Below are positions 5,401 to 31,768 of a DNA stretch of 31,768 bases, piece after piece (positions within the stretch are counted from its first letter, which is position 1; each line of letters opens with the position of its first letter). The stretch spans positions 1 through 31,768 of the forward strand of contig JAJBTP010000507.1 in NCBI GenBank assembly GCA_020860805.1. Direction: 5' to 3'. The notes under the pieces were generated by a model. The model saw only the letters and a program-made list of their open reading frames with translations, did no database searches and was not told the DNA's origin. The stretch is from Tannerellaceae bacterium. GTDB lineage: Bacteria > Bacteroidota > Bacteroidia > Bacteroidales > Tannerellaceae. The position numbers and the translations under genes are program-made.

Positions 5401-5605
5401 TGATTTCAAGAAAGTATTTCGTAAGATTCCGTTGGGACAGGTTCGCTTGTATATCTCAGCACAGAACCTGTACACCTTTACCGGCTATTCAGGAATGGAC
5501 CCTGAAATAGGTTGGGGAGCAGACGAATCATGGGCATCTGGTGTGGATGTAGGTAATTATCCTTCTCCGAGAACCTATATTATTGGTGTTAACCTCAAAT
5601 TTTAA
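2447..5605 (+). CDS. susC: SusC/RagA family TonB-dependent outer membrane transporter
   Basis: Carboxypeptidase-regulatory-like N-domain, LDEVVVVGYG, plug motif DIESIDVLKDAASAAIYGSRAANGVILVTTK, C-terminal YPSPRTYIIGVNLKF; 1052 aa, intact, no STN domain. Confidence 0.97.
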   Translation: MEKRNSIISFRDLFFSKKRLLLPAFLLLFSQILLAQSGTAISGKVVSQVDNEPLIGVNVVQKGTTNGTLTDLDGNFELTITSASVLEVSYVGFMTQQVNVQPGDRNIRIALKEDAQLLDEVVVVGYGVQKKKLNTGATVRVKGDDIQKMNSINPIAALQSQAPGLSITQTSGMPGEGFKVNVRGIGTTGDSAPLFVIDGIIGGDINSLNPSDIESIDVLKDAASAAIYGSRAANGVILVTTKQGKTGKATITYDGYFGVQNVYKMPSLLNAQEYATIMNEARLMDGLPGYDFASLVPNWESIANGTNKGTNWLDEIRNKNAPIQNHALNISGGTETGVYSIGMSYTSQEGILGKPAQPDFNRYNFRANTEFTLYKKGDLDIIKFGENLTYSYSEKSGIGIGNIYQNDIRYMMRTSPFMPVYDEDGDYHPAIAWNPMEPNPIAYMDYERGQNLRKNHTLRGKVFLTIQPIKNLVFRTNFGVSLNGMSYRVFKPDYNLASNVYRTENYVSQEMAIGHGWIWENTLSYDFNLKDKHNLNVLVGQSMERSGLGDRMKGENVNSIFDDFQHGYLDNTNVIYADRTKLSGGPYAAKHGIASFFGRLNYNYNETYMATVILRADGSSNFARGNRWGYFPSVSAGWVLSNEAFMESTQGFLDFLKLRASWGQNGDQQIDPYQYEALISFNNSNYFFGNDNRTVYPGSYPSLLANPDITWGKSQQLDLGFDARFLNGRLGVGFDYYVKTTKDWLVVAPTLDIYGANPPYKNGGEVENKGVELALSWNDQVGDFTYGANLNLTHNKNEVTHIANTEGIIQGKANVLGEGMSEIYRAQVGFPLGYFYGYKTLGVFQSEKEIADYKGAKLSGAQPGDLIFEDYNGDGVIDDLDRQMIGSPNPKVQLGVNLFFGYKGFDLSIAAHGAFGHQIAKSYRSATDNPLDNYTTEIFGRWHGEGTSNFLPRLTSGTSTNWSYMSDIYIENADYLKLQNITLGYDFKKVFRKIPLGQVRLYISAQNLYTFTGYSGMDPEIGWGADESWASGVDVGNYPSPRTYIIGVNLKF

Positions 5606-8354: not shown

Positions 8355-9027
8355 ATGAAAAAGACTATACTTTTTATTTGCCTCCTTTTAAATACACTGC
8401 TTCTTTCTGCCCAGTATCAACGGGCAGAGATGTGGGCAGATAAGATTGCCGAACTGGATGAAAAGAATGAAAGGGAGGGATTTACTCAAAATTGTGTGTT
8501 ATTCATAGGCAGTTCAACTTTTACCCGTTGGGGAAATGTGGCAGATTATTTCCCAAATTCTATTACAGTGAACCGGGCTTTTGGAGGCTCTATGCTGTGC
8601 GACCAGATTTATTTTTTTGATAAAGTAGTTAAACCCTTTAACCCAAAACAAGTGGTGATATACACCGGAGATAATGATTTAAATAATACATCAACTACCC
8701 CGGAGGAATACATGGAAGACGTTATTTGTATGACCCGGCTTATTCATTATCATTTTCCGGAAGCAAAAATACTTTTTACGTCTATTAAACCGTGTCCTGA
8801 CCGTACACATTCATTCAAAAAATACAAAAAAGCGAACCAACTCGTAGCCCGTTTATGCGGCTCAGTATGAGTATGTGGAGTATGTAAATATATGGGATTG
8901 TTTCTTTGATAAAAAGGGAAGGTTAATCAAAGAGTATTTTACAGACGACAATATTCATATAACCAAAGAGGCTTACTCGCTTTTACAGGAAGCGATGAAA
9001 GATAAAATACTTGAAAACAGAAAATAA
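8355..9027 (+). CDS. SGNH/GDSL hydrolase (probable carbohydrate esterase); frameshift near 8853
   Basis: Signal peptide; blocks FIGSST, NRAFGGS, YTGDND. Removing one T at 8852-8854 extends the ORF through YVNIWDCFF...TDDNIH (catalytic DxxH) to TAA at 9025-9027. Confidence 0.85.
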
Positions 9028-9028
9028 T

Positions 9029-13670: not shown

Positions 13671-15430
13671 AGGTTCAAATTACGATAAATATCCGGTGGT
13701 TCAGTTACCGGATACCTATACGGAGGCTTGTTTTTCGGGATGGGAATCTATTACAGGTGAAATCCGGCAGAAATTACAGGCTATAAACAAAAGAGAAAAG
13801 ATTCTGGTGGTAGAATGTTATCCCGGTGTGGACGAGAAGGAAATCCGGAATGTATTTGAAGCTGCCTTTCCGGATGCTCTTTGCATTCATTCAAAAGAGG
13901 GAATGCTGGAAGAAGAAGAGTTGAATGCATTATTGAAAGAGGATGTAACGGAGGATGAACTCTTCGGATACATGACCCGCCGGAATATAGACTGTTATTT
14001 TGACCCACAGAAAGTAGTATCCATTCGGAAGCAAATACAATCTGTATCCGGGCAACCGGTTATTGTATATGGAACCGGGGCTGCTTATCTACAACCTACA
14101 TCTGACATATTGGTGTATGCAGATATGGCCCGGTGGGAAATACAGCAGCGTTTCAGACGTAATGAAGTGGGGAATGTAGGGTTAAACAATGCTGCCGAAC
14201 GGACTTCACTACAATATAAAAGAGGCTTTTTTGTGGATTGGCGTATTTGTGACCGTTTCAAGAAAAAACTAATGCCTTACTGGAATTATGTATTGGATAC
14301 GAATAGCAAAGGTCAACCAAATATGGCAATAGCCGAAGCTATAGAGGCCGGTTTGAAACAGGCTATCCAACAACCGTTCCGGGCAGTTCCCTTTTTTGAC
14401 CCGGGACCCTGGGGAGAGGCCAATGGATGAAAGAAGTTTGTGACCTGGATAGAAAGGAAATCAATTTTGCCTGGTGTTTTGATTGTGTGCCTGAGGAAAA
14501 TAGTTTACTGTTAGGCTTTGGCAACATTCGATTCCAGTTACCATCTATAAATCTGATTTTTGCCTATCCCCGTGAATTGTTAGGAAAGCCGGTACATGCC
14601 CGCTTTGGTGATGAATTCCCTATTCGTTTTGATTTTCTGGATACCATGGATGGAGGAAATCTCAGTTTACAGGTACACCCATTGACCGAATATATACAGG
14701 AAAAGTTTGGAATGCATTATACGCAGGAAGAGAGTTATTATATGCTGGATGCCCGGGAAGATGTAGTCGTGTATCTGGGCCTAAAAATGGAATTGATAAA
14801 GATGAGATGATTCAGGCCCTGGAAGAATCTCAGACTTGCGGAGTATTTGATGTGGAAAAATATATCGGAAAATATCCGGCAAAGAAACATGATCATTTCC
14901 TGATACCTCCCGGTACCCTTCATTGTTCCGGTACGAATGGAATGGTTCTTGAAATCAGTGCCACTCCTTTTATTTTCACATTCAAACTTTGGGATTGGGG
15001 ACGTTTGGGACTGGATGGCCGGCCACGGCCTATTAATATTGAACATGGTAAACAGGTTATCCAATGGGATAGGGATGAAGAGTGGGCTAAAAAGGAAGGT
15101 ATTAATCAATTTGTTCCGGTTGACAAAGGAGACGGATGGCGGGAAGAGAAAACCGGCCTGCATGAATGTGGGTTTATTGAAACACGCCGTCACTGGTTCA
15201 CCAAACCGGTTCTGCATACAACGGATAAAAGTGTCAATGTACTGAATCTGGTGGAAGGGCGGGAAGCTATTGTAGAAAGTCCGAACCATGCTTTTGAACC
15301 TTTTGTGGTTCACTATGCAGAAACTTTCATTATCCCGGCAGCTGTGGGTGAATATACGATACGGCCTTTCGGTGAATCGGAAGGTCAGGAATGTGCTACA
15401 CTTAAAGCCTATGTCAGACACAATGGATAA
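13651..15430 (+). CDS. Long-form class I mannose-6-phosphate isomerase-like cupin with about 250-aa N-terminal extension; two frameshifts
   Basis: Restored PWGGQWMK; metal-site motifs LSLQVHP, QEESYY, IPPGTLHCSG, VLEISATP. Junctions at GAGAG 14414-14418 and A5 14783-14787. Confidence 0.88.
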
Positions 15431-16247: not shown

Positions 16248-17578
16248 ATGAATAACAACAGCAAATATTTATACTGGATTACATTCGTTGCTATCAATGG
16301 AGGATTATTGTTTGGACTGAATATGGCCTCTATCTCCGGTGCAACCGATATGATACAAATGAAGTTTTCACTTACTGAGAGCGGATTGGGAATGGTTACC
16401 GGAACGATGATGTTGGGTTGTTTGCTGGGGGCATTGTTTACCGGTAGTATAGCTGAAAAGTGGGGACGGAAGAAGACTATGTTACTGACGGCTGTATTAT
16501 TTATTATTTCAACCCTGGGTTGTGCTTTTTCCAATAGTTTAGGTATGCTTATCTTTTTCCGGGTATTGACGGGAGTAGGGGTAGGTATGGTTTCGGTAGT
16601 TGGTCCTATGTATATCTCAGAGATTGCACCGGCACGTAATAGAGGAACTTTTGTTTCGTTTAACCAGTTTGCCATAACCATTGGTATTTTATTAGCCTAC
16701 TGTTTTGATTTCTTACTGGTGAATCAGGGTGACCAAAGCTGGCGGTATATGTTGGGTATACCGGTTGTATTTGGTATTATTTACCTGGTATGTCTTTTAC
16801 TGGCTTTTCCGGAAAGTCCACGTTGGTTATTCAACCAGGGAAAGAAAGCAGAAGCATAAACTATCTTTAAGAAAATAGGAGAAGATATTTCCGATGATTT
16901 ATCAGGGATAGATTCATCCCAACAGACAAACGATAACCGTATCTCCATCGGAGACTTATTTAAAGGTAAAACCGGAAAAATTGTTTTTATAGGTACATTG
17001 ATAGCCGTGTTCCAACAGATAACGGGTATTAATGCGGTTTTGATTTTTGCACCGGATATTTTGAAATCAGCAGGAGTCGGAGGGGAAACAGCTTTACAAC
17101 AATCCATGTTAGTTGGCCTGGTTAACTTTCTGATGACTATTGTAGCCATTAAACTGGTGGATACACAAGGACGTAAAACTCTTTTATTGTATGGAGCAGC
17201 AGGTATGAGTGTGGCACTGTGTTATTTGATGTTTGAGTTTATGCAGCCGGTCCGTAATACGACATTTGTATTGATTGCGTTGTTAGTGTATATAGCCTTT
17301 TTGCAGCTTCTTTTGCACCGGTTATGTGGGTGATTATTTCTGAAATCTATCCACCGGCAATCAAAGGTTTAGCGATGTCTTTTTCAACGGCTGTCAGCTG
17401 GATATGTACCTTCCTTACCATCTATACTGCTCCGGTTATCCGGTCAGGTTTAGGTGATACGGCATTATTTGGTCTATACGCTTTCTTTTCAATAGTAGCC
17501 TTTCTATTCGTAAAAAAATATATACCAGAAACAAAAGGAAAAAGCTTAGAGCAGATTCAGAAGGAGTTGAAATTGTAA
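16248..17578 (+). CDS. Sugar porter (SP) family MFS transporter; in-frame TAA at 16857-16859 and frameshift near 17300
   Basis: GLLFG, KWGRKK, YISEIAPARNRG, PESPRW, FQQITGINAV, DTQGRKTLL, PETKGKSLEQI. Confidence 0.9.
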
Positions 17579-17689: not shown

Positions 17690-19117
17690 TTACTTTACCG
17701 TCCCGGTAAAGGTAATTACACTTTGCGCCGGGATACTTACAGAGAACTTGCCTGTTTTGTCTGCTTTAATAGACTGAGTTTCCCAGCATTTATCATTATT
17801 TGTGAGGTAACCTGTCAATGTATTTTGTGGGTTAGCTCCTTCTATAGACAGGTGAGTAATCTGTTCATTATCGTTATTATTGATAATTACGACTGTATAC
17901 TTGTTTTCCTTTTTATAGGCAGAAACTAATAATTCAGTGCTGGTTGTGGTTTCTATCCGTTTGCTTCCGGAAGGTATGTAACGGGTGAAATTCCCAAATG
18001 TTTCATAACGTTTGCTTAGGGTATACTCCTTTCTGTTTTTATTCAGTTCAATCAGACATTCGTTATTACCGGCCGGCATAGCCCCTCCCCACCAGATGAA
18101 AGCACTTACATTGGCCGTAGTCAGGTATTCGTGAAATGTTTCAGCCCAAAACATACCATTTTCCATGGATAAGTCCAATGGGTCTGTAGTACTTATTTCT
18201 GTCATCCATACCGGAATGTTTTTATCTTCTGCAATATGGAAAGGAACAATAGATGTTTTCATCAACCCATTAAGCATTTCCATGCCTTTTATCTCCGGAA
18301 ACGTATAACCATGCCCGGATGCAATGGGGTTATAGTTTAAAATATCCGGATATTCTTCCAGGATGGTGTTTACAAAATCTTCTGAAGAAAGAGAAGATAA
18401 CATAGTGGTAGCCGACCAGAATGGATTCTCTCCGAATACGATTTTAGCATCGACTTTCTCTTTTTGGAAAGTGGGTCCCAGATGTTTTGTAAGAAATTCT
18501 CCCATTTTGTCAGCACTCCATACCGATGAATTCCACGGAGCTGCATATCCGGGTTCGTTGGAAGGTGAGATAGCATACGGTTCCATACCAGCTGCCTGGT
18601 AGGCTTTATAGAAAGCAGCCAGATAATCGGCATAAGCCTGGTAATAGTCTTTTCTTAAATGTCCACCTGATGCATTTTTGTTACTTTTCATGTAAGCCGG
18701 TGCACTCCAGGCTGAAAAGAGGAGTTTCTCTACTTTGTACTTCTCTTTGGCCTGTTTGGTAATCCAGTGTTGGCCTCTGCGTTTTGCATCGTCCGATTCT
18801 TTATCCAAAAGAGGATGATCGAATGGAATAAGAATATCATCTTCCAGATTAAAAGAGGTATCATTTTCGTTTTCCCAATAATGAGGGTAGATTTCTCCCC
18901 GTAGAATGTTTAATTGAAGACCTTCCTGATCAAAAAGTAATTCCATGAGTTTATCCCGCTGATGGTGGGCGTACAATGGATAAGACCATCCGGCCTGGGA
19001 AACTCCGAATCCGTCAATGGTTTGTTTTTCCTGGTTCCAGTGGATGGTTACATCTCCGGCATGCAGAGGAAGTAAGCTCATACAGAGTAAAATAGTAAGC
19101 GTACAAACGTTTTTCAT
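17690..19117 (-). CDS. Glycoside hydrolase family 30 (clan GH-A, signal peptide)
   Basis: QTIDGFG, LFSAWSAPAYMKSN, AISPSNEP (acid/base), VWMTE (nucleophile), AFIWW, C-terminal beta-sandwich ending IPAQSVITF; 475 aa, intact. Confidence 0.9.
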   Translation of the reverse strand: MKNVCTLTILLCMSLLPLHAGDVTIHWNQEKQTIDGFGVSQAGWSYPLYAHHQRDKLMELLFDQEGLQLNILRGEIYPHYWENENDTSFNLEDDILIPFDHPLLDKESDDAKRRGQHWITKQAKEKYKVEKLLFSAWSAPAYMKSNKNASGGHLRKDYYQAYADYLAAFYKAYQAAGMEPYAISPSNEPGYAAPWNSSVWSADKMGEFLTKHLGPTFQKEKVDAKIVFGENPFWSATTMLSSLSSEDFVNTILEEYPDILNYNPIASGHGYTFPEIKGMEMLNGLMKTSIVPFHIAEDKNIPVWMTEISTTDPLDLSMENGMFWAETFHEYLTTANVSAFIWWGGAMPAGNNECLIELNKNRKEYTLSKRYETFGNFTRYIPSGSKRIETTTSTELLVSAYKKENKYTVVIINNNDNEQITHLSIEGANPQNTLTGYLTNNDKCWETQSIKADKTGKFSVSIPAQSVITFTGTVK

Positions 19118-19137
19118 GTTTTTTGTTTTTTAAGTTC

Positions 19138-19190
19138 ACACAGGAAACAAATATACGATCCTTGTTTCCTGTGTAAAAAAAAAAAAAAAA
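19138..19190. other. Perfect 13-bp stem-loop plus A16 tract between susD and GH30
   Basis: ACACAGGAAACAA (19138-19150) / TTGTTTCCTGTGT (19162-19174), then 16 A (19175-19190). No U-tract follows the stem in the transcribed (-) direction. Confidence 0.7.
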
Positions 19191-19198
19191 TAACTCTA

Positions 19199-20713
19199 TT
19201 ATTTATCCCACCACATACGTGTATTCAGGTCATCTGCGCCCTGACGTTGAATTGCCTGTTCAATATTGGCTTTATTTATTGTATACTCTTTGGTTGGATA
19301 AATGAGCCTTCTGGGTATTTTACCTCTGTTGGGGCTGCCGGCAAAGTTTGTTGGAGTTAATACAGGATAGCCTAATCTTCTCCAGTTGGCATAACTTTCG
19401 TATCCGTTCATGAAAGTAGCTACCCAGAATTCAGTACCAATCACGTTTAGTTTATCTTCTGTTGTCTGTGCATTAGCAAATAAATTCTGGCTCAGGTAGT
19501 TATCTATAGCCTCATCGCTGATAATACCACCGGCCCCATATACAGCCTGTTCTTTCATGGAGTTACGAACTGCATTTTCGTAATGCGTGTTGGCATTTCC
19601 GCTAATCCATCCTCTTACTACTGCTTCAGCCTGTAACAGTTCTGTTTCGGCAGACGACATAAATATGGTAGGAGCACTGCGTTGCAGAATGGTATTGGTG
19701 TTGAAATTGGAATATACATTATGATCAGAATAATCCGGTTCTACCTCTGTAATCGAATCGAAGTCATATCCATTCGGTAAACCTCTTTGTTTATCCGGAT
19801 CCGTATCACCATCAGGCAGAGAACAGAAAACAGTCAAACGGGGATCATGGGTTTGTTTCAAATGATCCATGAAAGTTTTACTGATTTTAATTTGTCCCAG
19901 TTCAATGAAGTTATCCATAATAAACCGGGTGGTCACTTGATTTTCTGTTCTGCTTTCACCTTCCAGGGGATTTATCATAGTCATATCTTCCTGTCCGGAC
20001 ATAACACCGCCCTGTAACGCTTCTGTTACCGTTTTCTTTGCTAATTCGGCATCTACTTTAGACATACGCATACCTAACCGGAGTAACATGGAATTTCCGA
20101 ATTTTTTCCATTTTGAAATATCACCATTATAAATAATATCACCTTCTATACCTGGTTTGGATGTATCCAGTAAATTCAACCCGGTTTTTATATCATTGAT
20201 TAATCCTGCGTAGATACTTTGCTGAGAGTCGTAAGCCGGATAATAATTCTGTTCATAATATCCCATACCGGCATCTGTATAAGGAATATCACCGAATAAG
20301 TCCGTCAGACGGTTAAATAAGTAGGCGCCCCAGATATGTGCAACAGCTAAGGTGTTTTCATATTTTTCATCTTCCGATGCAGTTACTTTTAATTCTGCAA
20401 GGTTCTTAATAACCATTCCGTAATTATCATTGAACATAGTTCCGGAAGATTCACTGGGATAGTATTTGTCGCCCGGCATTGTTTCTCTTTGCAGAGTAGC
20501 TGTTTGCTGAACAATCATCATACAGGTACCTACCTGAATGTTTTTACTCACCCCGCCTGTGGTTGGATTCAGGTATAACTGTACATAGGTAAGTAACGGA
20601 CCTGGTTCAATGGAAGTGCTGTTATTCGGGTCTCTGTTAATTTCTTCATATTCGCAGGCAAATAAAAGACTACATAAGAAGAAAACCGATATATTTTTGA
20701 GTCTGTTTTTCAT
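19199..20713 (-). CDS. susD: SusD-like lipoprotein (SusD-like_2 type)
   Basis: Lipobox SLLFA-C; LTDLFGDIPY, KWKKFGNSMLLRLGMR, ESYANWRRLGYP, IPRRLIYP, TRMWWD; downstream of susC. Confidence 0.93.
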   Translation of the reverse strand: MKNRLKNISVFFLCSLLFACEYEEINRDPNNSTSIEPGPLLTYVQLYLNPTTGGVSKNIQVGTCMMIVQQTATLQRETMPGDKYYPSESSGTMFNDNYGMVIKNLAELKVTASEDEKYENTLAVAHIWGAYLFNRLTDLFGDIPYTDAGMGYYEQNYYPAYDSQQSIYAGLINDIKTGLNLLDTSKPGIEGDIIYNGDISKWKKFGNSMLLRLGMRMSKVDAELAKKTVTEALQGGVMSGQEDMTMINPLEGESRTENQVTTRFIMDNFIELGQIKISKTFMDHLKQTHDPRLTVFCSLPDGDTDPDKQRGLPNGYDFDSITEVEPDYSDHNVYSNFNTNTILQRSAPTIFMSSAETELLQAEAVVRGWISGNANTHYENAVRNSMKEQAVYGAGGIISDEAIDNYLSQNLFANAQTTEDKLNVIGTEFWVATFMNGYESYANWRRLGYPVLTPTNFAGSPNRGKIPRRLIYPTKEYTINKANIEQAIQRQGADDLNTRMWWDK

Positions 20714-20725
20714 ATTGATACGTTC

Positions 20726-23700
20726 TTAAAATTTAACATTTAAACTAAATCCCCAGCTACGGGTCGCAGGTAAACTATACATTTCAAGGCCCTGTGCATT
20801 CCCGTTATTAAAAGAAGATTCGGCATCAACTACCGGAACTTTATCGTAAATAGTCCATAAGTTACGTCCTACGACAGATACCTGTAAATCGGCAACTTTA
20901 ATTTTATTGACCAAAGCTTTCGGGAATCTGTATCCGACGGCTAATTCACGCAATTTGATAAACGAGGCATCGTATACGAATTCTTCTGTGATACTATTGG
21001 CTATACCCATATAGTAAGTCATTACATCTACTTCTACATCATTGGGTGTACCATCCTGTTTGACACCTTTACCTACGATTTTGTTTTCTTCACGTCCTTC
21101 CAGCGTATCTTTGTGTTTACCATAGCTGTATACATTGTTGTTGGTACCGGAAAGAATACTTCCTCCGAATTTGGCGTCCAGCAAAATATTCAGGTTGATT
21201 CCTTTGTATTCGAAGTTGTTGCTGAAACCCAATGTCCACGGATGAACGCTTTCCCCGAGTTTAGTTAACTCTCCCCGCATCGGCAATCCGTTTTCATCAT
21301 ATATCTTTTCGCCGTTTTCGTTGCGTAGATACGGATATCCTTTGATGATACCATAGGGTTGGCCTACTTCATGGTAAATATATCCAGGTGCACCATCACC
21401 GTCCTGATAACCGGTACGGCTTTGTTCCAGAATAAATTCTGTAATGTTTTCCGTAATGTATTTAACTTCACTCTTATTGTAGGATAAATTAAAAGAACTG
21501 TTCCATTCAAAATTCCGGGTGCGTACAGGGATTCCTGTCAGTAATAATTCAATACCTCTGTTGGTTACCTCTCCGGCATTAATAAGTACATAGTCAAACC
21601 CGGAAGCAGTAGAAATACCTGCACTTACAATATCATCTTTGGTATTTCTTTGGTAATATGTGAAGTCTATTCCTATCCGGTTCTGTAAGAAACGTGCATC
21701 AAACCCTAATTCATAAGAAAGGGAAGAAAGCGGTTTCAGGTTCAGATTAGGAATGGTTTCCGTATTAATAGACCCGATAGGATAGCTCCCGAAGGATTGA
21801 TTATAACTATAGGTTAATCCCAGGTTATAAGGACCCACGCTTCCTCCTGATTTCGCCCACGAACCTCTTAATTTAAGGAATGGAATCCACTCCGGCATAG
21901 GAATGACTTCGGTTAATATAAGTCCTACTCCTACGGAAGGATAAAATATATGGTTGGGTGTTGTTTTATTTTTGTAAGATAGCGCTGAGAACCAATCATT
22001 ACGGCGCCTGTAACCGTTACGTAAACCATATTCCTGTAAGAAACTTCAGCCTGTCCGAAAACAGAATTAATGTAACTTTCTGAAAAATGTTTTCCTCCCG
22101 AAGTGGTTTCAGTATTGCCCATCGCGTTAAATCCCGGTTGTACGAAGCGGTTACCATTTGCACTGACTCTGTCCCACCAGGTAGCCATTGTATTCCAGCC
22201 AATAAAAGCATCTACCCCCCCAGGTGCTATTAAACAGCTTATTATAGCCTGCAATAGCTTCCACGTTAAACTCACCGTGAAAAGTAGTGGATTCGGAAAT
22301 GCTTCCTTCCGGTGAATACCCTGTACCCATTGGAATGACATCTGTATAACGTCTGGTAATCATATCACCACCGGCTTTTCCTCTGAGGTAAATATTTTCT
22401 GTGAAATCATATTGTGCCTGTAAAGAACCAATCATACGGTCTTTGCGGTCTTTTTGTTCACGTTGATAAGCTACAAAATAAGGATTGGATATCCATCCGC
22501 TGGAGGTAGGAAGAAATTCGCTGCCATCCTCGTTGACTGCCTTTTCGAGTGTACGAATATCCACACTGGTCGGCATAATCCACATATAAGTGTTTCCGTT
22601 AAAGATAAGGTCTCCCAGGTTCGGACGGTTCTGAGCCCGTTCCCGCATATACATAACACTTGCCTGGATAGATAATTTATCAGTTGGTTTTGAGTTCAGG
22701 TTTAATGTAATGTTATTCCGTTCCAGTTTAGAATTGGGATACAGGTCGTTTGCCCGCTGATCACCCAGACTGATTCTGTATTGGGTATCTTTTCCTCCAC
22801 CTGAAATGGATAAGTTGTTACTCAACATCCAGGCATTGTTGTAGAAATTTTTGAAGTTATCTTTTTGTGCTACATACGGCCGGAGTTCTCCATCAAACTG
22901 TTCGACATCCGAACCGTCTAATTTAGCACCCCAGGATAACATACCTGTATTCAGAGGACTAATAGCTCCGGGAACCATACCCATATATCCCTGTCCATAT
23001 TCCCACTGGAAATCTTTATTCTTTACAATAGGATTATCCAGGGTGAAATAACTGTTGTATTCTACGCTGACTTTGCCGGCTGCACCTTTCTTTGTAGTAA
23101 TAACAATGGCACCATTAGCGGCCCGTGAACCGTATAGGGCTGCTGCTGTTCCTCCTTTCAGCACACTCATGCTTTCGATATCTTCACTATTGATGGATGA
23201 AATACCGTCACCACCATCATTACCACCCCATAGACCTGCCTGGCCGTAATCGCTGTTATCAATGGGAATACCGTCCACGATATATAGTGGCTGGTTGTTA
23301 CCGTTCAGCGAACCGTTACCACGAATCGTAATACGGCTGGAACCCATTACTCCTGAACTTGGTTTCACAACATTTACACCTGCTACTTTACCTGTTAATC
23401 CGGTTGCCAGGTTCGTGGTTTTTACCCGGTTCATATCGTCGCCTTTTACTTCGGTAACCGAATAAGCCAGTGCTTTCTTTTCTTTTTTTTGATACCTAAT
23501 GCTGTTACAACGACTTCCTCCATTACCTGTGCATTTTCTCTCATTACAATATGCAAAGGTTGATTGTTTGCAATTCGTACTTCCTGGGTTATGTACCCAA
23601 TGTAACTGAATTGTAACGTAGCGTTTGCCGGAACATTTATTGAAAAATTACCATCCAGGTCGGAAACAACACCGATAGAAGGCTGGTTTTTTACAATAAT

Positions 23701-24151
23701 GTTCACTCCGATAATGGGTTCTCCGAACTGGTCTTTCACTGTTCCGGAAACCGGGATGTTCTGTTGTGTGGTTTCTCTTTTTTCAGGAACAACCTCTGTG
23801 GTTTTGATAAACACCTGCCGGTCGTTTACTACATACGAGTAATTGGTATTCTTAAATACTTCGTCCAGAATCTGGTCGATGGTTCTGTTTTCCATACGAA
23901 CGGCTACCCGTTTGTTGACATCTACTTCCTGTGTGTAAAAGAAAATGTATTCACTTTTCTTTTCAATATTATCAAACAGTTCTTTCATGGTTGCGTTATC
24001 CATATCCAGAGATAGTTTGACGGACTGAGAGTAGGAACTTGCTGCCATCAGGCATTGGGAACCCAGAAAGAACAGGAGTATTATACAATGTATGACTCCA
24101 CTCACTTTATTCCTTCCGGAATAGTTTTTTTCGTTAAGTTGTTTTTTTCAT
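20726..24151 (-). CDS. susC: SusC/RagA TonB-dependent transducer with N-terminal STN domain; four indels
   Basis: STN-like LFDNIEKKSEYIFFY; EEVVVTALGI; plug DIESMSVLKGGTAAALYGSRAANGAIVITTKKG; C-terminal TRSWGFSLNVKF. Junctions at T7 24142-24148 (restores ATG 24151 MKKQLNEKNY), T8 23483-23490, C7 22215-22221 and GCGC 22004-22007. Confidence 0.93.
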
Positions 24152-24203
24152 ACTATCCGAATTAATATAAAAGGTTAGACAATCGTGTTTCTATCGTGTT
24201 AAT

Positions 24204-25426
24204 TTAATGAGGTTTTTTGCTGTTTTGAATATAATAGGTTTCTTCGTTTTCGTCTTTGATTATCCGGATGGGATATAGTTCCTTTAATCCTTCCATTAAC
24301 TGATCAAAGTTTTCTTTCAGATCCAGTTTCCCATTTCCTTGGTATAAGGAAAGAGAAGGATCACAGTGAATCGCTTTTCCGTAAAACCGGGATAGCTTCC
24401 TCATGAGCGCCGGCAGATTGTCCCGGTCACATAATAAATATCCTTCTTTCCAGGAAATATAATTAGAGACATCTACTGTGGATATCGTGGATACATTGTC
24501 ATTGTAAACCAATATCTGATTAGGTAACAGGTTGTTTTCTTCGTTGTTAAGTGTTTTTACCGTAACTGCTCCGGATACCAGTACAACCGTTTGTATATCT
24601 TCTTCGTAAGCAGATACATTTAAAGAGGTTCCGGTTACTTTTACAGTCATTTGTCTGGTATGCACGAAAAAAGGACATTGTTTGTCAGACACTACATCCA
24701 GAAAGACTTCACCATTGACAAATATCTCTCTTTTGTCTGCCGTAAATGTTTCCGGAAAAATTACCTGGCTGCCGGAATTAATGTGCATAGTTGTTCCATC
24801 CGGTAGGGTCAGCCGGGAACGTGCTCCTTTAGGGACCACTAATTGATTGTAGTTTACTTTGTTTTCTTTTACTTTATCCGGGGCGGTTACCAACAGGTCT
24901 GCGTCAACATGGATATCTCCTTCTTCATTCATTTCAATATCGGCTGTTTGTTGGTTCAAAACATATGCCTTCTCACCCCCAACGATTAACTGAATACCTT
25001 TACCTTCTCCGTTTACAGGAGCCATTTCCCGGGCAATGGCAACAATATCTGTTTGTTCCTCTTCTTGCTGTTCCAGGCTGTTCCATTGGTAAAACAGATA
25101 ACTACTAACCAGTAACAATAGGGAGGCTACTGCACTCAATGTATATATATTATAACGGCGTATATGGCTTCGCAGGATTTCTTTGTTTTAACTTCAATGG
25201 CTATCCAGAGGGCATTTTTTTCTTTGACCGTAATGACTTTGTGAGGTTTCTTTACGGTTTCCATGAATGCCCGTGCCTGCTCTAATTCTTTTCCTGAGAG
25301 AAGATCATACTCTACCAGTGTATCCCAATACTTCTCAGTTTCTGGTGTAGGGTTTACTATGGATTGGATAAAATCCTCGTCGTCCAGCAATTCTTTCTCT
25401 TTATATGAAGTATATTTTTTAGTCAT
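24204..25426 (-). CDS. fecR: FecR family anti-sigma factor; frameshift near 25185
   Basis: N-terminal LLDDEDFIQ..W, TM segment SAVASLLLLVSSYLF, FecR motifs LTLPDGTTMHINSGS, VNGEVFLDV, VKVTGTSLNV, ISWKEG. ORFs 25136-25426 and 24204-25139 join with one added base. Confidence 0.9.
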
Positions 25427-26061
25427 ATTTTATTTTTATATTCACTGTTATACCGGCTATCCGTATGTTGGGAAATTTCCCTTATTTTCTGAATAGAACG
25501 GTGTAATAAGTTTCGTACAGATTGATAATTCATTTGCATGAGTTCGCAGATATCCTCGTATGACATACCTTCGGTAAACCGGTAGTAAATAACTTCCCGT
25601 TGCCGTGGAGATAAGGTTTGAAGCATATTCCTGAGATTCCGTTTCGATTCCGTTTCCTGTTCCTGGTCAATGTAACGTTCTTCCACGGAACGTTCCAACG
25701 AAAACACAGGTTCCATAGAATCTATCTGGTAATAGTCCGGGTCTTTATTAAAAACTGCAAACAACCTGTTTTTGAGGGAAACATATAAGTAAACCTTTAC
25801 ATTGGCGACCTCTTTCAGGTTTTTGCGGTTACTATAAATGGTTACAAATACATCCTGTATTGCATCTTTTATGACTTCGTCGATAGAAGTGAAATACAGC
25901 CCGTAATAGAATAAATCCTGAATATTTAATTCATATAGCCGGGCAAACGCATTATTATTCCCTTTGATGAAAGCCGACCAAAGTTCATTATTTAAGGCTG
26001 TATGTTGCGTTTTGTGGACCATGTTGCCTAATGGAGTAGTTTCTTCGGATTTTGCACTCAC
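25423..26061 (-). CDS. ECF-type RNA polymerase sigma-70 factor (alternative start ATG 26022)
   Basis: Region 2 AFARLY...DAIQDVFVTIY and region 4 LSPRQREVIYYRFTEGMSYEDICELM; overlaps the anti-sigma start. Confidence 0.93.
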   Translation of the reverse strand: MSAKSEETTPLGNMVHKTQHTALNNELWSAFIKGNNNAFARLYELNIQDLFYYGLYFTSIDEVIKDAIQDVFVTIYSNRKNLKEVANVKVYLYVSLKNRLFAVFNKDPDYYQIDSMEPVFSLERSVEERYIDQEQETESKRNLRNMLQTLSPRQREVIYYRFTEGMSYEDICELMQMNYQSVRNLLHRSIQKIREISQHTDSRYNSEYKNKI

Positions 26062-26194
26062 TATTTCTGAAAAAAATAGAGGATTAGTGGAATTTTTTTT
26101 GAAATGGTAAGAAAGAAATAGAAATAGTGAAAAGTTTGGGTGGCTACATTTTTACCTTTGGAAGTGATAAGTGGTATTATTATTCTGCTAGTGT

Positions 26195-26605
26195 TTACTC
26201 TCTGTTTTTAGTGATAGGTTCATATTTCAGGAAGCTGGCTTTTTGCTCTATCCGGTTTTTGAAAGCCGGTGCCGGTTTAAAACAAACCCGTTTGATTTGA
26301 ATATCATTTCCGGTAATCTTATCCGGGTCGGTGACCGGATGTTTTAATTCGGCTGAGACTTTAAAAGTACCCAGTCCGTCCAACGTAACCGTATTACCCG
26401 AAGCTAATTGATCAGCAATTACACCAATCAGATTACTGACCATACCGGTTACATCACCCGGAGAAAACGCGCTCAATGTGTTCATGTATTCGGCAATTTC
26501 AGTTAAAGAAATATTGGAGTTGCGAACCAGTGAAATGCTGTAATGTGATTCTCCATCCGGGAAACGTCCGTTTTTTACTTTGTTGATGTTGTATTTCAGT
26601 GACAT
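26195..26605 (-). CDS. Bacteroidetes HU-related (histone-like) DNA-binding protein
   Basis: ISLTEIAE...SPGDVTGMV...LASGNTVTLDGLGTFKVS...IKRVCFKP pattern typical of the Bacteroidetes HU-like paralogue family; 136 aa. Confidence 0.82.
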   Translation of the reverse strand: MSLKYNINKVKNGRFPDGESHYSISLVRNSNISLTEIAEYMNTLSAFSPGDVTGMVSNLIGVIADQLASGNTVTLDGLGTFKVSAELKHPVTDPDKITGNDIQIKRVCFKPAPAFKNRIEQKASFLKYEPITKNRE

Positions 26606-26830: not shown

Positions 26831-27478
26831 TTATTTATTAAAAAAATAAGCTTCCAACATGCTGCATAGTGTATGGTAAATAGGCAAATGGTATTCCTGA
26901 ATCCGGAATACTTCCTGTGCGGGTACCTGAATGGTAATATCACAAATAGAGTGAAGAGCACTTTTTCTGCTACCGGTAAAGGCAATTGTTTTGATTCCGA
27001 AAGCTTTTGCTGTTTTACAAGCGTTTACTACATTGGCTGAGTTGCCGGAGGTGCTGAGTCCTATTAATACATCTCCGGGTTTGCCGTAACCTATCACTTG
27101 TTGGGCGTATATCATTTCCGGATGTACATCATTCATGAAAGCACTTGTCAGGGACAATTGGCTGACTAAAGATAGGACTGGAATAGCTTGCTGGAGGTTA
27201 CTGATAAAAAAGTCTGCCTCTTCCGGAAAAGTCTCCCGGATTGTTTGTTGCTGTTGTTCTGCTAAAGGGCGTTTTTGTTTGAAACCTTTCATTAGTTCTC
27301 CTACCATATGTTCGGCATCAGCGGCACTGCCACCGTTACCACAAGTCATAATCAGACCTTTGTTACGGTAACAGGTTTGCAGGAGAAGATATGCAGAGAA
27401 TATACTTTCTCTGCATATCGATAGTTCAGGATAATTAGAAAATAAGATTTCGAATTCCTGTTGAGGAGTTGTTTTCAT
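26831..27478 (-). CDS. gmhA: GmhA-like SIS-domain phosphosugar isomerase (sedoheptulose-7-phosphate isomerase family)
   Basis: CGNGGSAADAEHMVGEL, GDVLIGLSTSGNSANV, RIQEYHLPIYH. The H-x3-E and Q-x7-H spacings of GmhA active-site residues are preserved. The symbol denotes family only. Confidence 0.85.
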   Translation of the reverse strand: MKTTPQQEFEILFSNYPELSICRESIFSAYLLLQTCYRNKGLIMTCGNGGSAADAEHMVGELMKGFKQKRPLAEQQQQTIRETFPEEADFFISNLQQAIPVLSLVSQLSLTSAFMNDVHPEMIYAQQVIGYGKPGDVLIGLSTSGNSANVVNACKTAKAFGIKTIAFTGSRKSALHSICDITIQVPAQEVFRIQEYHLPIYHTLCSMLEAYFFNK

Positions 27479-28470
27479 ATTCTTTCAGAATCTAAATTGT
27501 ACGCTCCTACAGATAGGGCTGCATAATCACCAATCTGTTCTCCTAATCCGGCCGGTACGATTTTACATACTTTCCGGGTATGGATAAGGGTTTCTTTTTC
27601 TATTATCTCCTGCATGGATGGCTCTATCAGTTTTTGTGCACGTCCGTAGATGCTTCCCAGAATAATTAGTTCAGGATTCAGTATATCTATTACTATAGAT
27701 AAGGCTTTCCCCAGATACATCCCGCAAAGACTATATATTTCTATGGCAACCGCATCACCTGCCAGGGCTGCTTCCGCAACTGTTTTTGCTGATAAAGAAG
27801 TAAGTTGGCCGGTGTTCCTGCAAAAAGAGTTTTTTTCGCCCATCTGGATTTTTTCCAATACTTTGGTTTGTGTTAATTGTGCAATCCCTCCGCCACTGCA
27901 AAATCCTTCAAATGAGCCGGCTTTACCATATCCAACCGGGCCGTTCTGGGCTAAACGTATGCGCCCTACTTCGCCGGCCATATCATTGGCTCCTACATAT
28001 AATTTCCCATCCAGAATAAGACCACAGCCCATACCGGTACCGAAGGTCAGAAAGAGCATGTTTTTAATTCCTTTGCCGGCTCCGTATTTCCATTCGGCCA
28101 GTGCACAGGCATTGGCATCATTTTGAATATATGTTTTTACTCCCAGCCGCTTTTCAAACAGTCCGGTAATAGGAATGTTATCCCATCCCGGTAAGTTAGG
28201 GGGTGACATGATGATTCCTTTCCGGCTATCCAGAGGGCCACCGCAACTTATTCCTATGGATGAAAGATTTTCAGGTGTAAAACCTGCTTTTGCCAATAGT
28301 TCATTTATGGCAGTAAAAATACGTTCCAGTGTATGTTGGTATCCTTTTGGGGTTTCGGTAGGAAAGGCATGTTTATCTATTAATTCCATTGAATCATCCT
28401 TTCCTTTTTTACCGAGGATGACTGCACATTTTGTGCCGCCGATGTCTATACCTAAAATTATATTTTTCAT
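27475..28470 (-). CDS. ROK family sugar kinase lacking the Cys-rich Zn motif
   Basis: ILGIDIGGT, QNDANACALAEW, FGTGMGCG, AGEVG, NPELIILG; 331 aa, intact. Confidence 0.9.
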   Translation of the reverse strand: MKNIILGIDIGGTKCAVILGKKGKDDSMELIDKHAFPTETPKGYQHTLERIFTAINELLAKAGFTPENLSSIGISCGGPLDSRKGIIMSPPNLPGWDNIPITGLFEKRLGVKTYIQNDANACALAEWKYGAGKGIKNMLFLTFGTGMGCGLILDGKLYVGANDMAGEVGRIRLAQNGPVGYGKAGSFEGFCSGGGIAQLTQTKVLEKIQMGEKNSFCRNTGQLTSLSAKTVAEAALAGDAVAIEIYSLCGMYLGKALSIVIDILNPELIILGSIYGRAQKLIEPSMQEIIEKETLIHTRKVCKIVPAGLGEQIGDYAALSVGAYNLDSERI

Positions 28471-29636
28471 GATTGGGTGGGATTTGATTTATTGGAACGA
28501 ATGAGGTATATAGCTAAGTATAGGATATACAGAAGGCAGGCTCCCATTACTAACATACCTGTCATTAGGCCGTATGAATCTGTAATCAGTGCCATGAGAG
28601 GGGGAATAACTCCACCTCCGCATACACTCATAATCATGAGTCCGGAAAGCTCGTTAGCCCGTTCCGGCAGGTATTGTAATCCGGCAGAAAAGATAAGTGG
28701 GAAGATGGCTGCTGTGCAAAGTCCAATACTGAAAACGGAGATACAACCTCCGAGGAAAGAGTCCATCCGATACATGGAGGCAAATGTCAGGATGGACAGG
28801 AATGCACAATAAAGGAGCATTTTATTACTTTTCATTTTATTCAGGATAAGGGCACTCACGAAACGTCCGGTCATCAGGGCGGCAAAGTAGAGGCTTATTC
28901 CCCGGTTGCTTTCTTCCTGTGAAACACCAAAAAATGATTTCAGGTAATCCGGTATGTTGGTATTCATACCTACGTCGAAACCAACCATCAGGAATGTACC
29001 GCAAACCAGTAATAGTACTTTGCGGTCGCTCAGTAGTTTGATAGTGCTGCTGAAACCGGCTCTTCCGCTGTTTCCTGTTTCACGGATAGGGGTACATTGA
29101 AGCCAGATAATGGTTATTATACTAAGGGTAAGGTATACCCAATATACGATTGTCCAGTTATTAAAATATTCGGCAAAGAAAGTGGCAATAAAAGGTCCGC
29201 CCATTCCGGCAATGGCTTTTACAAACTGGGATAAGGTCAGATTGCGGGATAGTTTGCCGGAGGGTGATACATCCTGCATAAGCGGGTTGGCTGATACCTG
29301 TATGATGGCATTTCCTATACCCATACAAGTAAAAGAGGTTATCATCCCCTGAAAACTGTAACTGATAAGAGGAGTAACCATTCCCATAGCGATGAAGATT
29401 ATTCCCAGGTTAACGGTTCTTTTCTTGCTGTATTTGTCCTGAAAGATTCCTACCGGAACAGATAGCAGGGCGAACCATACAAATGCCATAATCGTAAGCA
29501 GGTGGGTATGTGCGTTTGTTAATCCGAATTCAAGACGGACATAGCTTGTTGCTACACCGACAATATCCGGAAAACCCATTACATAGAATGCCATGAAAAC
29601 GGGCAATACTTTAAACAGATTATTCTGGTTGTTCAT
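28467..29636 (-). CDS. MFS sugar transporter (FucP/NagP-like); probable start ATG 29636
   Basis: About 12 hydrophobic segments; FYVMGFPDIVG, IIQVSANPL, LSQFVKAIAG, GRFVSA, AIFPLIFS, GGGVIPPLM. Confidence 0.88.
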   Translation of the reverse strand: MNNQNNLFKVLPVFMAFYVMGFPDIVGVATSYVRLEFGLTNAHTHLLTIMAFVWFALLSVPVGIFQDKYSKKRTVNLGIIFIAMGMVTPLISYSFQGMITSFTCMGIGNAIIQVSANPLMQDVSPSGKLSRNLTLSQFVKAIAGMGGPFIATFFAEYFNNWTIVYWVYLTLSIITIIWLQCTPIRETGNSGRAGFSSTIKLLSDRKVLLLVCGTFLMVGFDVGMNTNIPDYLKSFFGVSQEESNRGISLYFAALMTGRFVSALILNKMKSNKMLLYCAFLSILTFASMYRMDSFLGGCISVFSIGLCTAAIFPLIFSAGLQYLPERANELSGLMIMSVCGGGVIPPLMALITDSYGLMTGMLVMGACLLYILYLAIYLIRSNKSNPTQS

Positions 29637-29733
29637 ACTATGTTTTTCTTTATATGCACCGGGACTAAACATCTGTTTGTTTGTTTTCGTCCCGGTGACT
29701 TGATTTACAAAGGCGTGAGAATTGATTTATTAT

Positions 29734-31767
29734 TTATTCTTCTAACAGGTTTACCTCTTTCACTTCTCCTGTATGCCGGTTTACCCTGAGCGTTTTGATT
29801 TCGCAGGGGCGGAAATCACCTTCCCAGGTTGTGTTGACAACCGGTAAGTCGATTGTAGCGGCAGAGGCTTTTCCCTGTGTTTCTATGCATCGCATGATGA
29901 GGTCAGCTCCTTTCTCCGATATTTTTATGGAGGATAGGAGTATGTTGGGCTCTTGTACGTTCATGAAGGAGGCTGACCTGGGTAGCTTACCCGGATGGAT
30001 ACCCTGATAAACGATTGTAGAGGGGGTTAAAAACTCTTCTGCCAGAGCCGGGAGGTTAATATCCTGCCAGGAACCGGTATGAGGAACTAATTTCATCCGG
30101 AATGTTTGTATACCCTGGTCCATCCAGATATATTCTTTTTCCGGTTCCAGCTTTTTAGGGTCATGATGTGCATATACGGCAGAGCGTACAACGGAGAGAT
30201 GCATATCTGTGCCCTTCACATCATATCCGTATTTTGCATCATTTAGCAGGGCGAATCCATAGGTTTTATTACCTTTTTTCCCGGTGACGTCAATCCAACG
30301 TTGGCCGGGCACTTCGTTGCCGTTGTTTTTTCTTACAAGGTAGCCATACGGTATTTCATAGGTTGCTTCTGAGGTTTCTGTATTTACCGGAAAGGAGAAT
30401 TTCAGTATTTTTAGTCTTTCATGCCAATCCAGTGTTACTTTTGCTTCGGGCATTCGTGAACCTGCGTAGAGTGTCCAGTCTATTGTCAGGGTTGATTTAC
30501 CATAGGTTGAATGAACCCGTAGCGTGGCTTTTAAAGGACCGCTTTCTATTATTTTGAAAGTGGCATTCCCAAAGGCTTCTATTTCCTTGGAGTAGTGAGT
30601 TACCGCATGGCTCCAGCTATCACTCGGGTCATCCATTACAACGGCACGGCATCCTTTTGCTCCTCCTTTAAAGACTTCTTTTCCATTTGCTTTATCCGTG
30701 ATACTTAAACAGCCTTCTGTAGAAAATCTGATTTTGATATACTGATTTTCGATACTGTTGTTTTGAATCGTAACGGGGTGTTGGATGGTGGCCGGTTGTC
30801 CTTTTCTTATTCGTAACTGGCGATATCCCATCGGAGGGATGGATGCTTGTATACATATCATTCGCCGGTCGGATGTTTCGGAAGCTCCGCTTACCCACTG
30901 GTGGGGTAATGGGTTTCCGTTTTCATCTTCTACGTGTGAGGTTCCGGGATTTTTACCAAAGATACCCAGTTCATATTCCAGGTGTTCTTTTACTTCCCGG
31001 GCGTGTGGATTAAAGACTACGAGGTATTTGGAGTCGGAGTCTTCTGTAGGTATCTGCCATTCCAGTTTTTGTAATGCCAGGTAACGTAGGCGGTTGGCTG
31101 TGTCGAGTGCATAGGTATAACCTTCCAGTGCTGTTTGTGAATGCTGGAACAGGGAGGAACCTGCCAGGCTATCATGGAATTGCATAAACAGGACTCTGTG
31201 CCATGCTTTGGTCAGGTCTTCTGCGGGGTAACTGACTTTCCATGCCAGTGTTCCTAATGCGGTTACTTTTTCAGTATGTATCAAAGCTGCTTCAGCCAGC
31301 CGGTTGTTTTTCTTTATACTACTTTCGGCTGTATAACAACCTACTGCATGGTATTGTAAATCATCTTTTACAACGGGTATCTGTATACTTTTATCGGCAC
31401 GGATATCGTCAAAGTACCGGTCAGCTGAACTGTAGAATAGGGTGGGAGCTCCTTTTTCTTTTTTCAGTGCTTCTATGGATTTGATGGTTTCTTTGGTGGG
31501 GCCGCCTCCGTGGTCGCCTACTCCGTAAAATGACATATAGGATTTCATGGGTTGCGTCTCTCTTTCGTCCATAATCAATCCGATACGTTTATGGACTGTT
31601 TTCTCTTCGTTGTACCCTTTCGGTATCCGGTAAGCCTGTACTTTTGAACCATCCGGACTTTCCCACCAGAAGAGTTCTGCCGGAAGGTTTTTTTCGTGTG
31701 GTTCGGGCCGTAAGAAGGTATAACTATCCAATCCCTGTAATTTGAAAATCTGGGGCAGGGTGCCTGC
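29734..31767 (-). CDS. Glycoside hydrolase family 38 alpha-mannosidase-like protein, 5'-truncated by the window edge
   Basis: Frame stays open to the window end (AGTLPQIFKLQGLDSYTFLRP). Motifs YGVGDHGGGPT, HAVGCYT, QFHDSLAG, YEIPYG, LLNDAKYGY. The nucleophile motif would lie just beyond 31768. Confidence 0.9.
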   Translation of the reverse strand, partial: AGTLPQIFKLQGLDSYTFLRPEPHEKNLPAELFWWESPDGSKVQAYRIPKGYNEEKTVHKRIGLIMDERETQPMKSYMSFYGVGDHGGGPTKETIKSIEALKKEKGAPTLFYSSADRYFDDIRADKSIQIPVVKDDLQYHAVGCYTAESSIKKNNRLAEAALIHTEKVTALGTLAWKVSYPAEDLTKAWHRVLFMQFHDSLAGSSLFQHSQTALEGYTYALDTANRLRYLALQKLEWQIPTEDSDSKYLVVFNPHAREVKEHLEYELGIFGKNPGTSHVEDENGNPLPHQWVSGASETSDRRMICIQASIPPMGYRQLRIRKGQPATIQHPVTIQNNSIENQYIKIRFSTEGCLSITDKANGKEVFKGGAKGCRAVVMDDPSDSWSHAVTHYSKEIEAFGNATFKIIESGPLKATLRVHSTYGKSTLTIDWTLYAGSRMPEAKVTLDWHERLKILKFSFPVNTETSEATYEIPYGYLVRKNNGNEVPGQRWIDVTGKKGNKTYGFALLNDAKYGYDVKGTDMHLSVVRSAVYAHHDPKKLEPEKEYIWMDQGIQTFRMKLVPHTGSWQDINLPALAEEFLTPSTIVYQGIHPGKLPRSASFMNVQEPNILLSSIKISEKGADLIMRCIETQGKASAATIDLPVVNTTWEGDFRPCEIKTLRVNRHTGEVKEVNLLEE

Positions 31768-31768
31768 A

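Follow-up and report, generated by a model that had tools for sequence, protein, structure and literature searches.

A GmhA-type isomerase in a Tannerellaceae operon for the probable breakdown of a manno-configured sugar, possibly heptose

Closest described systems and layout of the module

Isomerases of the GmhA type (EC 5.3.1.28; solved structures 2XBL, 1X92 and 2I22) belong to GDP- and ADP-heptose biosynthesis. In the stretch of DNA analysed here such an isomerase, otherwise known only from heptose building, is tied to a mannosidase, an importer and a kinase. The stretch, called the window below, is the whole contig JAJBTP010000507.1 (C163; 31,768 nucleotides) of a fragmented metagenome-assembled genome (MAG) of a Tannerellaceae bacterium, a gut-type member of the Bacteroidales (3.44 Mb, 634 contigs, 79% complete). 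It carries four co-oriented genes for a GH38 glycoside hydrolase, an MFS permease, a ROK kinase and a SIS isomerase. The operon that they form probably serves to degrade a sugar of mannose-like shape, which may be heptose. The probability that this module takes up and catabolises a manno-configured sugar, foremost D-glycero-D-manno-heptose, via heptose-7-phosphate to sedoheptulose-7-phosphate is put at roughly 0.45.

The module genes are intact over 4.9 kb. A preliminary description of the window, made from its letters alone, had reported four co-oriented genes and two 4-bp overlaps at 27475-27478 and 28467-28470; the open reading frames and both overlaps (each ATGA) have been confirmed, and the strand has been corrected to minus. 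The module is built as follows:

29734-31767, minus strand: GH38, C-terminal 677 codons, 5' end open at the contig edge
29673-29733, minus strand: spacer between GH38 and MFS, 61 bp, read directly
28467-29672, minus strand: MFS permease, 401 aa, glucose/galactose-fucose permease type
28467-28470, minus strand: ATGA overlap of the MFS stop and the ROK start, 4 bp, read directly
27475-28470, minus strand: ROK kinase, 331 aa, zinc-less subfamily
27961-27963, minus strand: codon CGC for Arg170 at the ExGH position of ROK, from alignment and sequence
27475-27478, minus strand: ATGA overlap of the ROK stop and the SIS start, 4 bp, read directly
26831-27478, minus strand: SIS isomerase, GmhA-type "long" subfamily, 215 aa

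The Pfam matches to GH38 (N-terminal, middle and C-terminal domains), MFS_1, ROK and SIS_2/SIS are all over cut-off. For the permease MFS_1 scores 102 bits, and the nearest NCBIfam models, gluP and fucP, both remain under their cut-offs; its orthologues occupy the equivalent place in three of the loci retrieved for comparison, L015 (69% identity, tblastn), L075 and L076. Orthologues of the module in relatives keep 58-69% identity. The spacer that separates GH38 from MFS showed no terminator-like site on the minus strand in a consensus scan. That scan, for sigma-70 promoters and terminators, does not cover Bacteroidota promoters and gave counts close to the shuffled expectation.

Four described systems resemble the module in part. 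The SIS protein shares its fold, zinc ligands and substrate contacts with GmhA, and its closest sequence relatives include members of HddA/HddC/GmhB clusters. It differs from GmhA in (i) a two-helix insert of 26 residues; (ii) hidden Markov model scores below cut-off; (iii) translational coupling to a ROK kinase and an importer within a polysaccharide utilisation locus (PUL); (iv) the lack of any heptose-activating enzyme that the queries applied could detect in the genome, from which it follows that the isomerase would run catabolically or on a six-carbon substrate. The second system is the gmuBACDREFG operon of Bacillus subtilis, whose parts are a hydrolase, a transporter, GmuE as ROK-type kinase and GmuF, a mannose-6-phosphate isomerase (PMI) of the cupin fold. 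The logic and gene order of such mannoside operons (hydrolase, importer, ROK kinase, aldose-ketose isomerase) are those of the module; in contrast to them, the module has a SIS/GmhA isomerase in place of the cupin enzyme, a zinc-less ROK kinase, and import by SusC/SusD and MFS proteins.

The third is MAN-PUL2, the yeast-mannan locus of Bacteroides thetaiotaomicron, in which Cuskin et al. are said to have described, in 2015, GH38, GH130 and GH92 among other families. MAN-PUL2 likewise sets these three families beside SusC/SusD, with periplasmic exo-mannosidases. In the locus described here, however, no GH76 or GH125 was seen, the GH38 is shorter (about 850 aa), exported by the twin-arginine translocation (Tat) route and of a different subfamily, and a GH28-like gene and the importer-kinase-isomerase set are added, the latter not being known from the B. 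thetaiotaomicron loci. Finally, ROK glucokinases such as GlkA of Streptomyces griseus (3VGK) align with the kinase from end to end and share its length and the ATP-binding and catalytic NDAN motifs. Unlike GlkA, the whole ROK subfamily lacks all three zinc-binding cysteines, and in the window alone the zinc- and sugar-binding histidine is replaced by arginine.

The GmhA-type isomerase and its kinase partner

Sequence and structural model both identify the SIS protein, in fold as in active site, as a genuine member of the GmhA type. The closest solved relatives at good scores are all GmhA or its close relative DiaA. In a Foldseek search with the AlphaFold2 model (predicted local distance difference test, 96.6) ranks 1-35 were all GmhA or DiaA, headed by GmhA of Burkholderia pseudomallei, 2XBL, with a TM-score of 0.87 normalised to the target. 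The GmhA residues responsible for zinc binding, catalysis and contact with sedoheptulose-7-phosphate were taken from two published studies (PMC5705639, PMC7705670), and correspond to the SIS protein as follows:

Zinc and catalytic residues: S58, D61, H64, E68, D98, Q175 and H183 of B. pseudomallei GmhA; S51, D54, H57, E61, D117, Q194 and H202 of SIS
Substrate and phosphate contacts: N53, G55, S121, T122, S123 and S126 of Mycobacterium tuberculosis GmhA; N48, G50, S142, T143, S144 and S147 of SIS, all present

The four zinc ligands H57, E61, Q194 and H202 are thus kept, and the H-x3-E/Q-x7-H site read in the preliminary description is located at H57-x3-E61 and Q194-x7-H202. Over 69 family members the zinc and catalytic equivalents are invariant or almost so. 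The insert, modelled as two short helices, covers residues 72-97; as it splits the match, the protein stays under the curated GmhA cut-offs (TIGR00441, 130.3 versus 209.45 bits; NF010546, 131.7 versus 276). The protein has no match to TIGR00218, the model of the cupin class I ManA, and is not a member of that family; it could at most work like a PMI without belonging to it. It is the sole GmhA-like gene found in this MAG. Another SIS-domain enzyme known from the literature, the GlcNAc-6-phosphate dehydratase NagS, was dropped from consideration, being related to MurQ and not to GmhA.

The kinase (Pfam ROK, 176.9 bits) possesses DIGGTK at residues 9-14 and the NDAN motif, has no helix-turn-helix domain, and its 331 residues align over their full length with glucokinases. 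The zinc motif CxCGxxGCxE is replaced by GPVGYGKAGSFE in all orthologues, and the cysteines are absent in 17 of 17 subfamily members. The histidine of the ExGH motif is kept in 16 aligned orthologues, whereas the window kinase has Arg170, whose codon CGC is one transition away from CAC; either a genuine substitution or a fault in the assembly could account for it.

The pairing of this kinase with GmhA-type proteins has been followed in both directions. Most loci were fetched by similarity to the SIS protein, which biases the context counts; a search that starts from the kinase is free of this bias. When the kinase alone was compared with 41 relatives and an even draw of 400 Bacteroidota genomes, eight loci with at least 50% identity were obtained, the window included, and a GmhA-type gene lies within two genes in six of them. 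The same ROK subfamily (54-58% identical) pairs with a short, Escherichia coli-type GmhA in genomes G007, G013 and G426. These short partners score 257-259 bits against an equivalog cut-off of 265 bits, cluster with housekeeping GmhAs, one of which adjoins BamA and Skp-like (OmpH) genes, and are identical to them in every active-site motif. Their contexts are LacI-GH78-GH2-ROK-GmhA-SusC-SusD, LacI-ROK-GmhA-MFS and GH92-GmhA-transporter-ROK. Genome G007 holds the ROK-linked copy and, separately, a biosynthetic GmhA with HddA-type genes. One ROK subfamily has therefore recruited two deep GmhA lineages without visible change, which is easiest to explain if the kinase product is a seven-carbon sugar phosphate and the chemistry that of GmhA.

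The first of these contexts (L079, G007:C8, 3775-16855) contains a GH2 for which only the N-terminal Pfam domain suggests a beta-mannosidase type, the nearest NCBIfam models being beta-galactosidases. One S-layer glycan of Aneurinibacillus is reportedly a repeat of alpha-L-rhamnose and beta-D,D-heptose. The rhamnosidase and GH2 of L079 would suit such a rhamnose/heptose repeat, and rhamnose-mannose glycans equally well.

Intact SusC-SusD-GH38-MFS-ROK-SIS arrangements are present in two metagenome contigs, L075 and L076. In a variant, LacI-GH38-ROK-SIS, the next gene downstream encodes an ECF (extracytoplasmic function) sigma factor, and FecR, SusC and SusD come farther on. Other variants are GH38-ROK-SIS-SSF, GH92-ROK-SIS, ROK-SIS-GH2, GH116-x-GH2-ROK-SIS and MFS-ROK-SIS alone. 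Lihuaxuella and Paenibacillus show the order GH38-SIS-ROK, and in Paenibacillus genes for a binding protein and permeases come ahead of it. A binding protein, two permeases, GH38 and SIS are also present in a Trueperaceae genome, whose only ROK-family gene there is distant, on the opposite strand, and probably a regulator. Two further loci were noted. L074 (10001-11074) encodes a homologue of 357 aa with two SIS_2/SIS domain pairs, placed between a ROK gene and a GH2 closest to beta-glucuronidases. L081 (G021:C13, 6139-9685), from a related genome, carries an orthologous GH38 (62% to that of L075) followed by a ROK gene with an internal TGA, and no SIS; it is possibly a remnant of the module.

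Across 54 loci from species-representative genomes, found by SIS similarity, three kinds of context have been distinguished. For about 20 homologues of the long type, chiefly those of Lachnospiraceae and other Clostridia, the neighbours are genes for a GHMP kinase, a nucleotidyltransferase and a HAD phosphatase, a set of the HddA/HddC/GmhB type that constitutes the GDP-heptose pathway. In about a dozen loci the homologue accompanies a ROK kinase, with or without GH38. A smaller third group adjoins, or is fused to, a kinase resembling HldE domain I, together with a protein of the "GSU2086 family". Because members are located in HddA/HddC/GmhB-type clusters, and one is a fusion with an HldE-I-like kinase, the long subfamily does act on heptose phosphates in these settings, as read from gene context. 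Several related Bacteroidales also carry GmhA-HddA-GmhB-HddC clusters.

The trees are quick maximum-likelihood searches with SH-aLRT (Shimodaira-Hasegawa-like approximate likelihood ratio test) support, and their inner support is weak. They place the window SIS in a Bacteroidales clade with 97-98% SH-aLRT support, and seven of the nine proteins in this clade are ROK-linked. Taken together, sequences linked to ROK do not form one clade and are interleaved with biosynthetic ones, with no long separating branch. A columnwise comparison of the two sets found no active-site position that tells the contexts apart; the residues that do separate them are correlated with lineage only, with no convergent change between the two lineages. 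The preliminary description had proposed a phylogeny of the family as a check of whether this clade co-occurs with ROK and GH38 rather than with hldE or hddA: this holds for the clade of the window, but most Firmicutes homologues lie beside hddA, hddC and gmhB.

The third kind of context raises the question of salvage, in which imported heptose would be kept as heptose-7-phosphate for nucleotide-heptose synthesis while GmhA tops up the pool from sedoheptulose-7-phosphate. In L064 the ROK-SIS pair is accompanied by a fusion of an HldE-domain-I-like kinase with a HAD phosphatase, with GH92 nearby; in L065 an HldE-I-like kinase lies near ROK-SIS, with a distant GH38; and G007 and G014 hold HddA-type genes elsewhere in the genome. 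Nevertheless, salvage is very improbable for the module described here. A search with a single HddA-like protein detected no HddA-type gene in this MAG (79% complete), Lihuaxuella (G041) or Paenibacillus cremeus (G043), and on this ground the SIS protein has no visible biosynthetic partner. HldE domain I gave no match at cut-off in the five genomes searched, the best being the kinase of L065 in G043 (136 of 345 bits). No gene of the HddA, HddC, GmhB or HldE type is present among the window reading frames scanned, as the preliminary description had stated, and the operon, part of a PUL that has hydrolases and an importer, contains no transferase.

Hydrolases and the polysaccharide utilisation locus

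The window ends inside the GH38 gene, and the first 175 codons have been located on contig C554 of the same MAG; the contig end cuts the gene, which is not a biological truncation. With the 848-aa orthologue of L075 as query, residues 1-174 match C554:10849-11373 at 67% and residues 174-848 match the window at 58% identity. The two contig ends have 9 bases in common, the reading frame runs through, and the joined protein has about 850 aa. Its Pfam domains are GH38 N, middle, C and C2, and its closest solved relatives are Ams1-type GH38 enzymes. The C554 part encodes the stretches HGHIDP and HPDSFGH, which correspond to the GH38 metal-binding and nucleophile motifs.

The N-terminus, MKKTNTISRRKFIHH..., bears the twin-arginine motif SRRKF, a Tat export signal, and so do the Bacteroidales orthologues, whereas those of Firmicutes begin right at the catalytic domain. 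Owing to this difference the enzyme should be periplasmic in Bacteroidales and cytoplasmic in Firmicutes. The predicted location fits the importers, namely SusC/SusD with MFS in the former, and a binding protein with two permeases in the latter.

The joined order of C554 and the window is SusC-SusD-DUF3823-GH130-GH28-GH92-GH38-MFS-ROK-SIS, with all genes co-oriented. The DUF3823 gene encodes a lipoprotein, the GH28 gene is GH28-like, and GH92 stops 24 bp ahead of GH38. The GH130 matches solved Bacteroides GH130 chains at 4e-78, chains which are presumably of the beta-1,2-mannosidase type. SusC and SusD, both split into fragments, are adjacent on C554 and co-oriented with the hydrolases, and the four-gene module is thus the inner end of a PUL. 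Among 400 Bacteroidota genomes no orthologue of this GH38 subfamily exceeded 34% identity, hence no association statistic was obtained.

SusC, SusD, GH130, GH28 and GH92 on C554 (L094, 53-10824) are all split by frameshifts or stops, and so are several long genes of the window (two to four reading frames each): 20726-24105 on the minus strand, and 9011-11641, 14427-15430 and 16248-17333 on the plus strand. SusC, GH2 and a PMI-like gene have been identified among them; the sugar transporter at 16248-17333 appears truncated too. About one break per few kilobases across contigs looks like assembly or sequencing error, the decay of the PUL being the alternative. A non-functional, decaying copy, or a module for another sugar (a ketoheptose, a deoxy-heptose or an unrelated hexose), would agree with these breaks, with Arg170 at the conserved histidine of the kinase and with hydrolase partners as varied as GH78 and GH116. 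Such an explanation is nonetheless unlikely: the four module genes are unbroken, their orthologues are conserved at the level given above, and the density of breaks is contig-wide, which resembles assembly error and not the decay of one locus.

Heptose or mannose as the substrate

In the favoured reading, heptose catabolism, SusC/SusD would import an oligosaccharide, from which the Tat-exported periplasmic GH38, with GH92 and GH130, would free the monosaccharide. The MFS permease would bring it into the cytoplasm, where the zinc-less ROK kinase would phosphorylate its terminal hydroxyl to yield heptose-7-phosphate. The GmhA-type isomerase would then reverse its freely reversible reaction and deliver sedoheptulose-7-phosphate to the pentose phosphate pathway. 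Any mannose freed by GH38, GH92 and GH130 could take the ordinary ManA route of the genome. In this scheme we infer which sugar is used, where the kinase phosphorylates it and any heptosidase activity of the hydrolases.

Heptose is favoured for several reasons: the GmhA active site is unchanged in two lineages, the ROK-GmhA pairing is recurrent, ManA is encoded elsewhere, some loci add HldE-like and HAD genes, and the reported turnover of GmhA is low, less than 1 per second (PMC5705639). Of 15 module-carrying genomes, 14 have a class I ManA over cut-off; this MAG is among them, with ManA as a separate gene on contig C580. The exception, G171, is a complete genome that lacks class I ManA and gives just weak small-cupin matches. 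A cupin PMI gene is absent from every locus fetched except the window itself, where the PMI-like class I gene (14427-14810 and 14807-15430, plus strand, split by a frameshift) lies in a neighbouring plus-strand PUL with SusC at 2447-5605, SusD at 5644-7320 and GH2 pieces at 9011-11641. This gene is 32% identical to the ManA of the genome and a weak match to 1QWR.

Several points weigh against heptose. The partner hydrolases all belong to mannosidase-type families (GH38, three unrelated GH92 subfamilies, GH2 and GH130), and to our knowledge heptosidase activity has never been reported for any of these. The sequence hydrolase-importer-ROK-isomerase is the standard template of mannoside operons, with SIS standing where the PMI normally sits. 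Operon-specific extra PMIs are common, so that a ManA elsewhere is weak evidence, and conserved residues are no proof of chain-length specificity. Heptose needs several hydrolase families to accept one extra carbon, mannose only that GmhA accepts one fewer; judged by sequence, every enzyme of the module could be a six-carbon or a seven-carbon version. The tree is poorly resolved, and the fetching of loci by SIS similarity biases the context counts. Furthermore, with arginine for the conserved sugar-binding histidine of its kinase and fragmented neighbouring PUL genes, the window copy may be damaged or mis-assembled.

Mannose is a strong, though less probable, rival as the substrate. The PUL would degrade fungal-type mannan or another mannoside, the MFS permease would import mannose, ROK would yield mannose-6-phosphate, and the GmhA-type protein would be a non-cupin PMI delivering fructose-6-phosphate to glycolysis. 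The reaction itself is suggestive, as the step from sedoheptulose-7-phosphate to manno-heptose-7-phosphate is the exact homologue of that from fructose-6-phosphate to mannose-6-phosphate. GH130 (presumably of the beta-1,2-mannosidase type), GH92 and GH38 stand directly upstream in the same PUL, a set that resembles MAN-PUL2, and the ROK-SIS pair elsewhere sits with GH38, GH92 or GH2. G171 carries the module and no class I ManA, and the PMI-like gene of the neighbouring PUL indicates that PUL-borne PMIs occur in this genome. Mannose would, however, require that two deep GmhA lineages have turned into PMIs without detectable change in the active site, in genomes of which all but G171 hold ManA, and beside a ROK subfamily never seen adjoining a cupin PMI. 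E. coli manA mutants fail to grow on mannose although GmhA is present. The low turnover of GmhA (PMC5705639) would also be ill suited to bulk catabolic flux.

The preliminary description had proposed heptose salvage or catabolism, with mannose only as an alternative. The GmhA-type isomerase and the catabolic, PUL-linked operon stood up to analysis, while GH130 and GH92 point to mannose. It knew of no described PUL-linked heptose catabolic route, and the literature search indeed found none, nor any paper on heptose catabolism, a heptosidase or a GmhA-type PMI. Its premise that Bacteroides, in their characterised LPS cores, generally lack heptose is weak background, given the GmhA-HddA-GmhB-HddC clusters of related Bacteroidales and the GmhB of B. 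thetaiotaomicron, which is reported to prefer the alpha-anomer (PMC4380924).

Heptoses are common in bacterial surface glycans, and no paper was found on their consumption by any organism. Clusters of the GDP-heptose type were met in about 20 of the 54 SIS-similarity loci, from gut-type Firmicutes, and in several Bacteroidales relatives. Tentatively, the module could represent the first catabolic pathway for bacterial heptoses, with GH38, GH92 and GH2 heptosidases, a zinc-less ROK kinase and a reversed GmhA, by which Bacteroidales and Firmicutes would feed on the capsules, S-layer glycans or lipopolysaccharide cores of others where these bear heptose. If heptose is the substrate, the module fills the gap in heptose consumption, parts of GH38, GH92 and GH2 are to be reassigned, and the set becomes a marker for microbes feeding on the envelopes of other bacteria. 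If mannose is the substrate, the isomerase founds a new, non-cupin class of mannose-6-phosphate isomerases now mislabelled as heptose-biosynthesis enzymes. Under either reading the annotation "phosphoheptose isomerase" is misleading here.

Two side observations concern the surroundings of related genes. The set of an HldE-I-like PfkB kinase, a "GSU2086 family" protein and a long-type GmhA is found in L064 (6032-8979), L055 (6050-9074), L017 (7246-10624) and L065 (12266-13366), with the kinase in some cases joined to a HAD phosphatase in one protein, and in one case to GmhA. None of the more than 7,900 homologues of the GSU2086 family bears a name or has a solved relative, and one shows a deoxyhypusine-synthase Pfam match; the set looks like an unstudied heptose-phosphate pathway. 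Downstream of SIS in the window, the minus strand (17690-26605) encodes an HU-like protein, an ECF sigma factor, a 96-aa reading frame, the anti-sigma factor FecR, a split SusC, SusD and GH30. L077 and L078 repeat this pattern, with an ECF sigma factor, FecR and SusC coming after GH38-ROK-SIS, and for this reason the module and the downstream PUL may share regulation.

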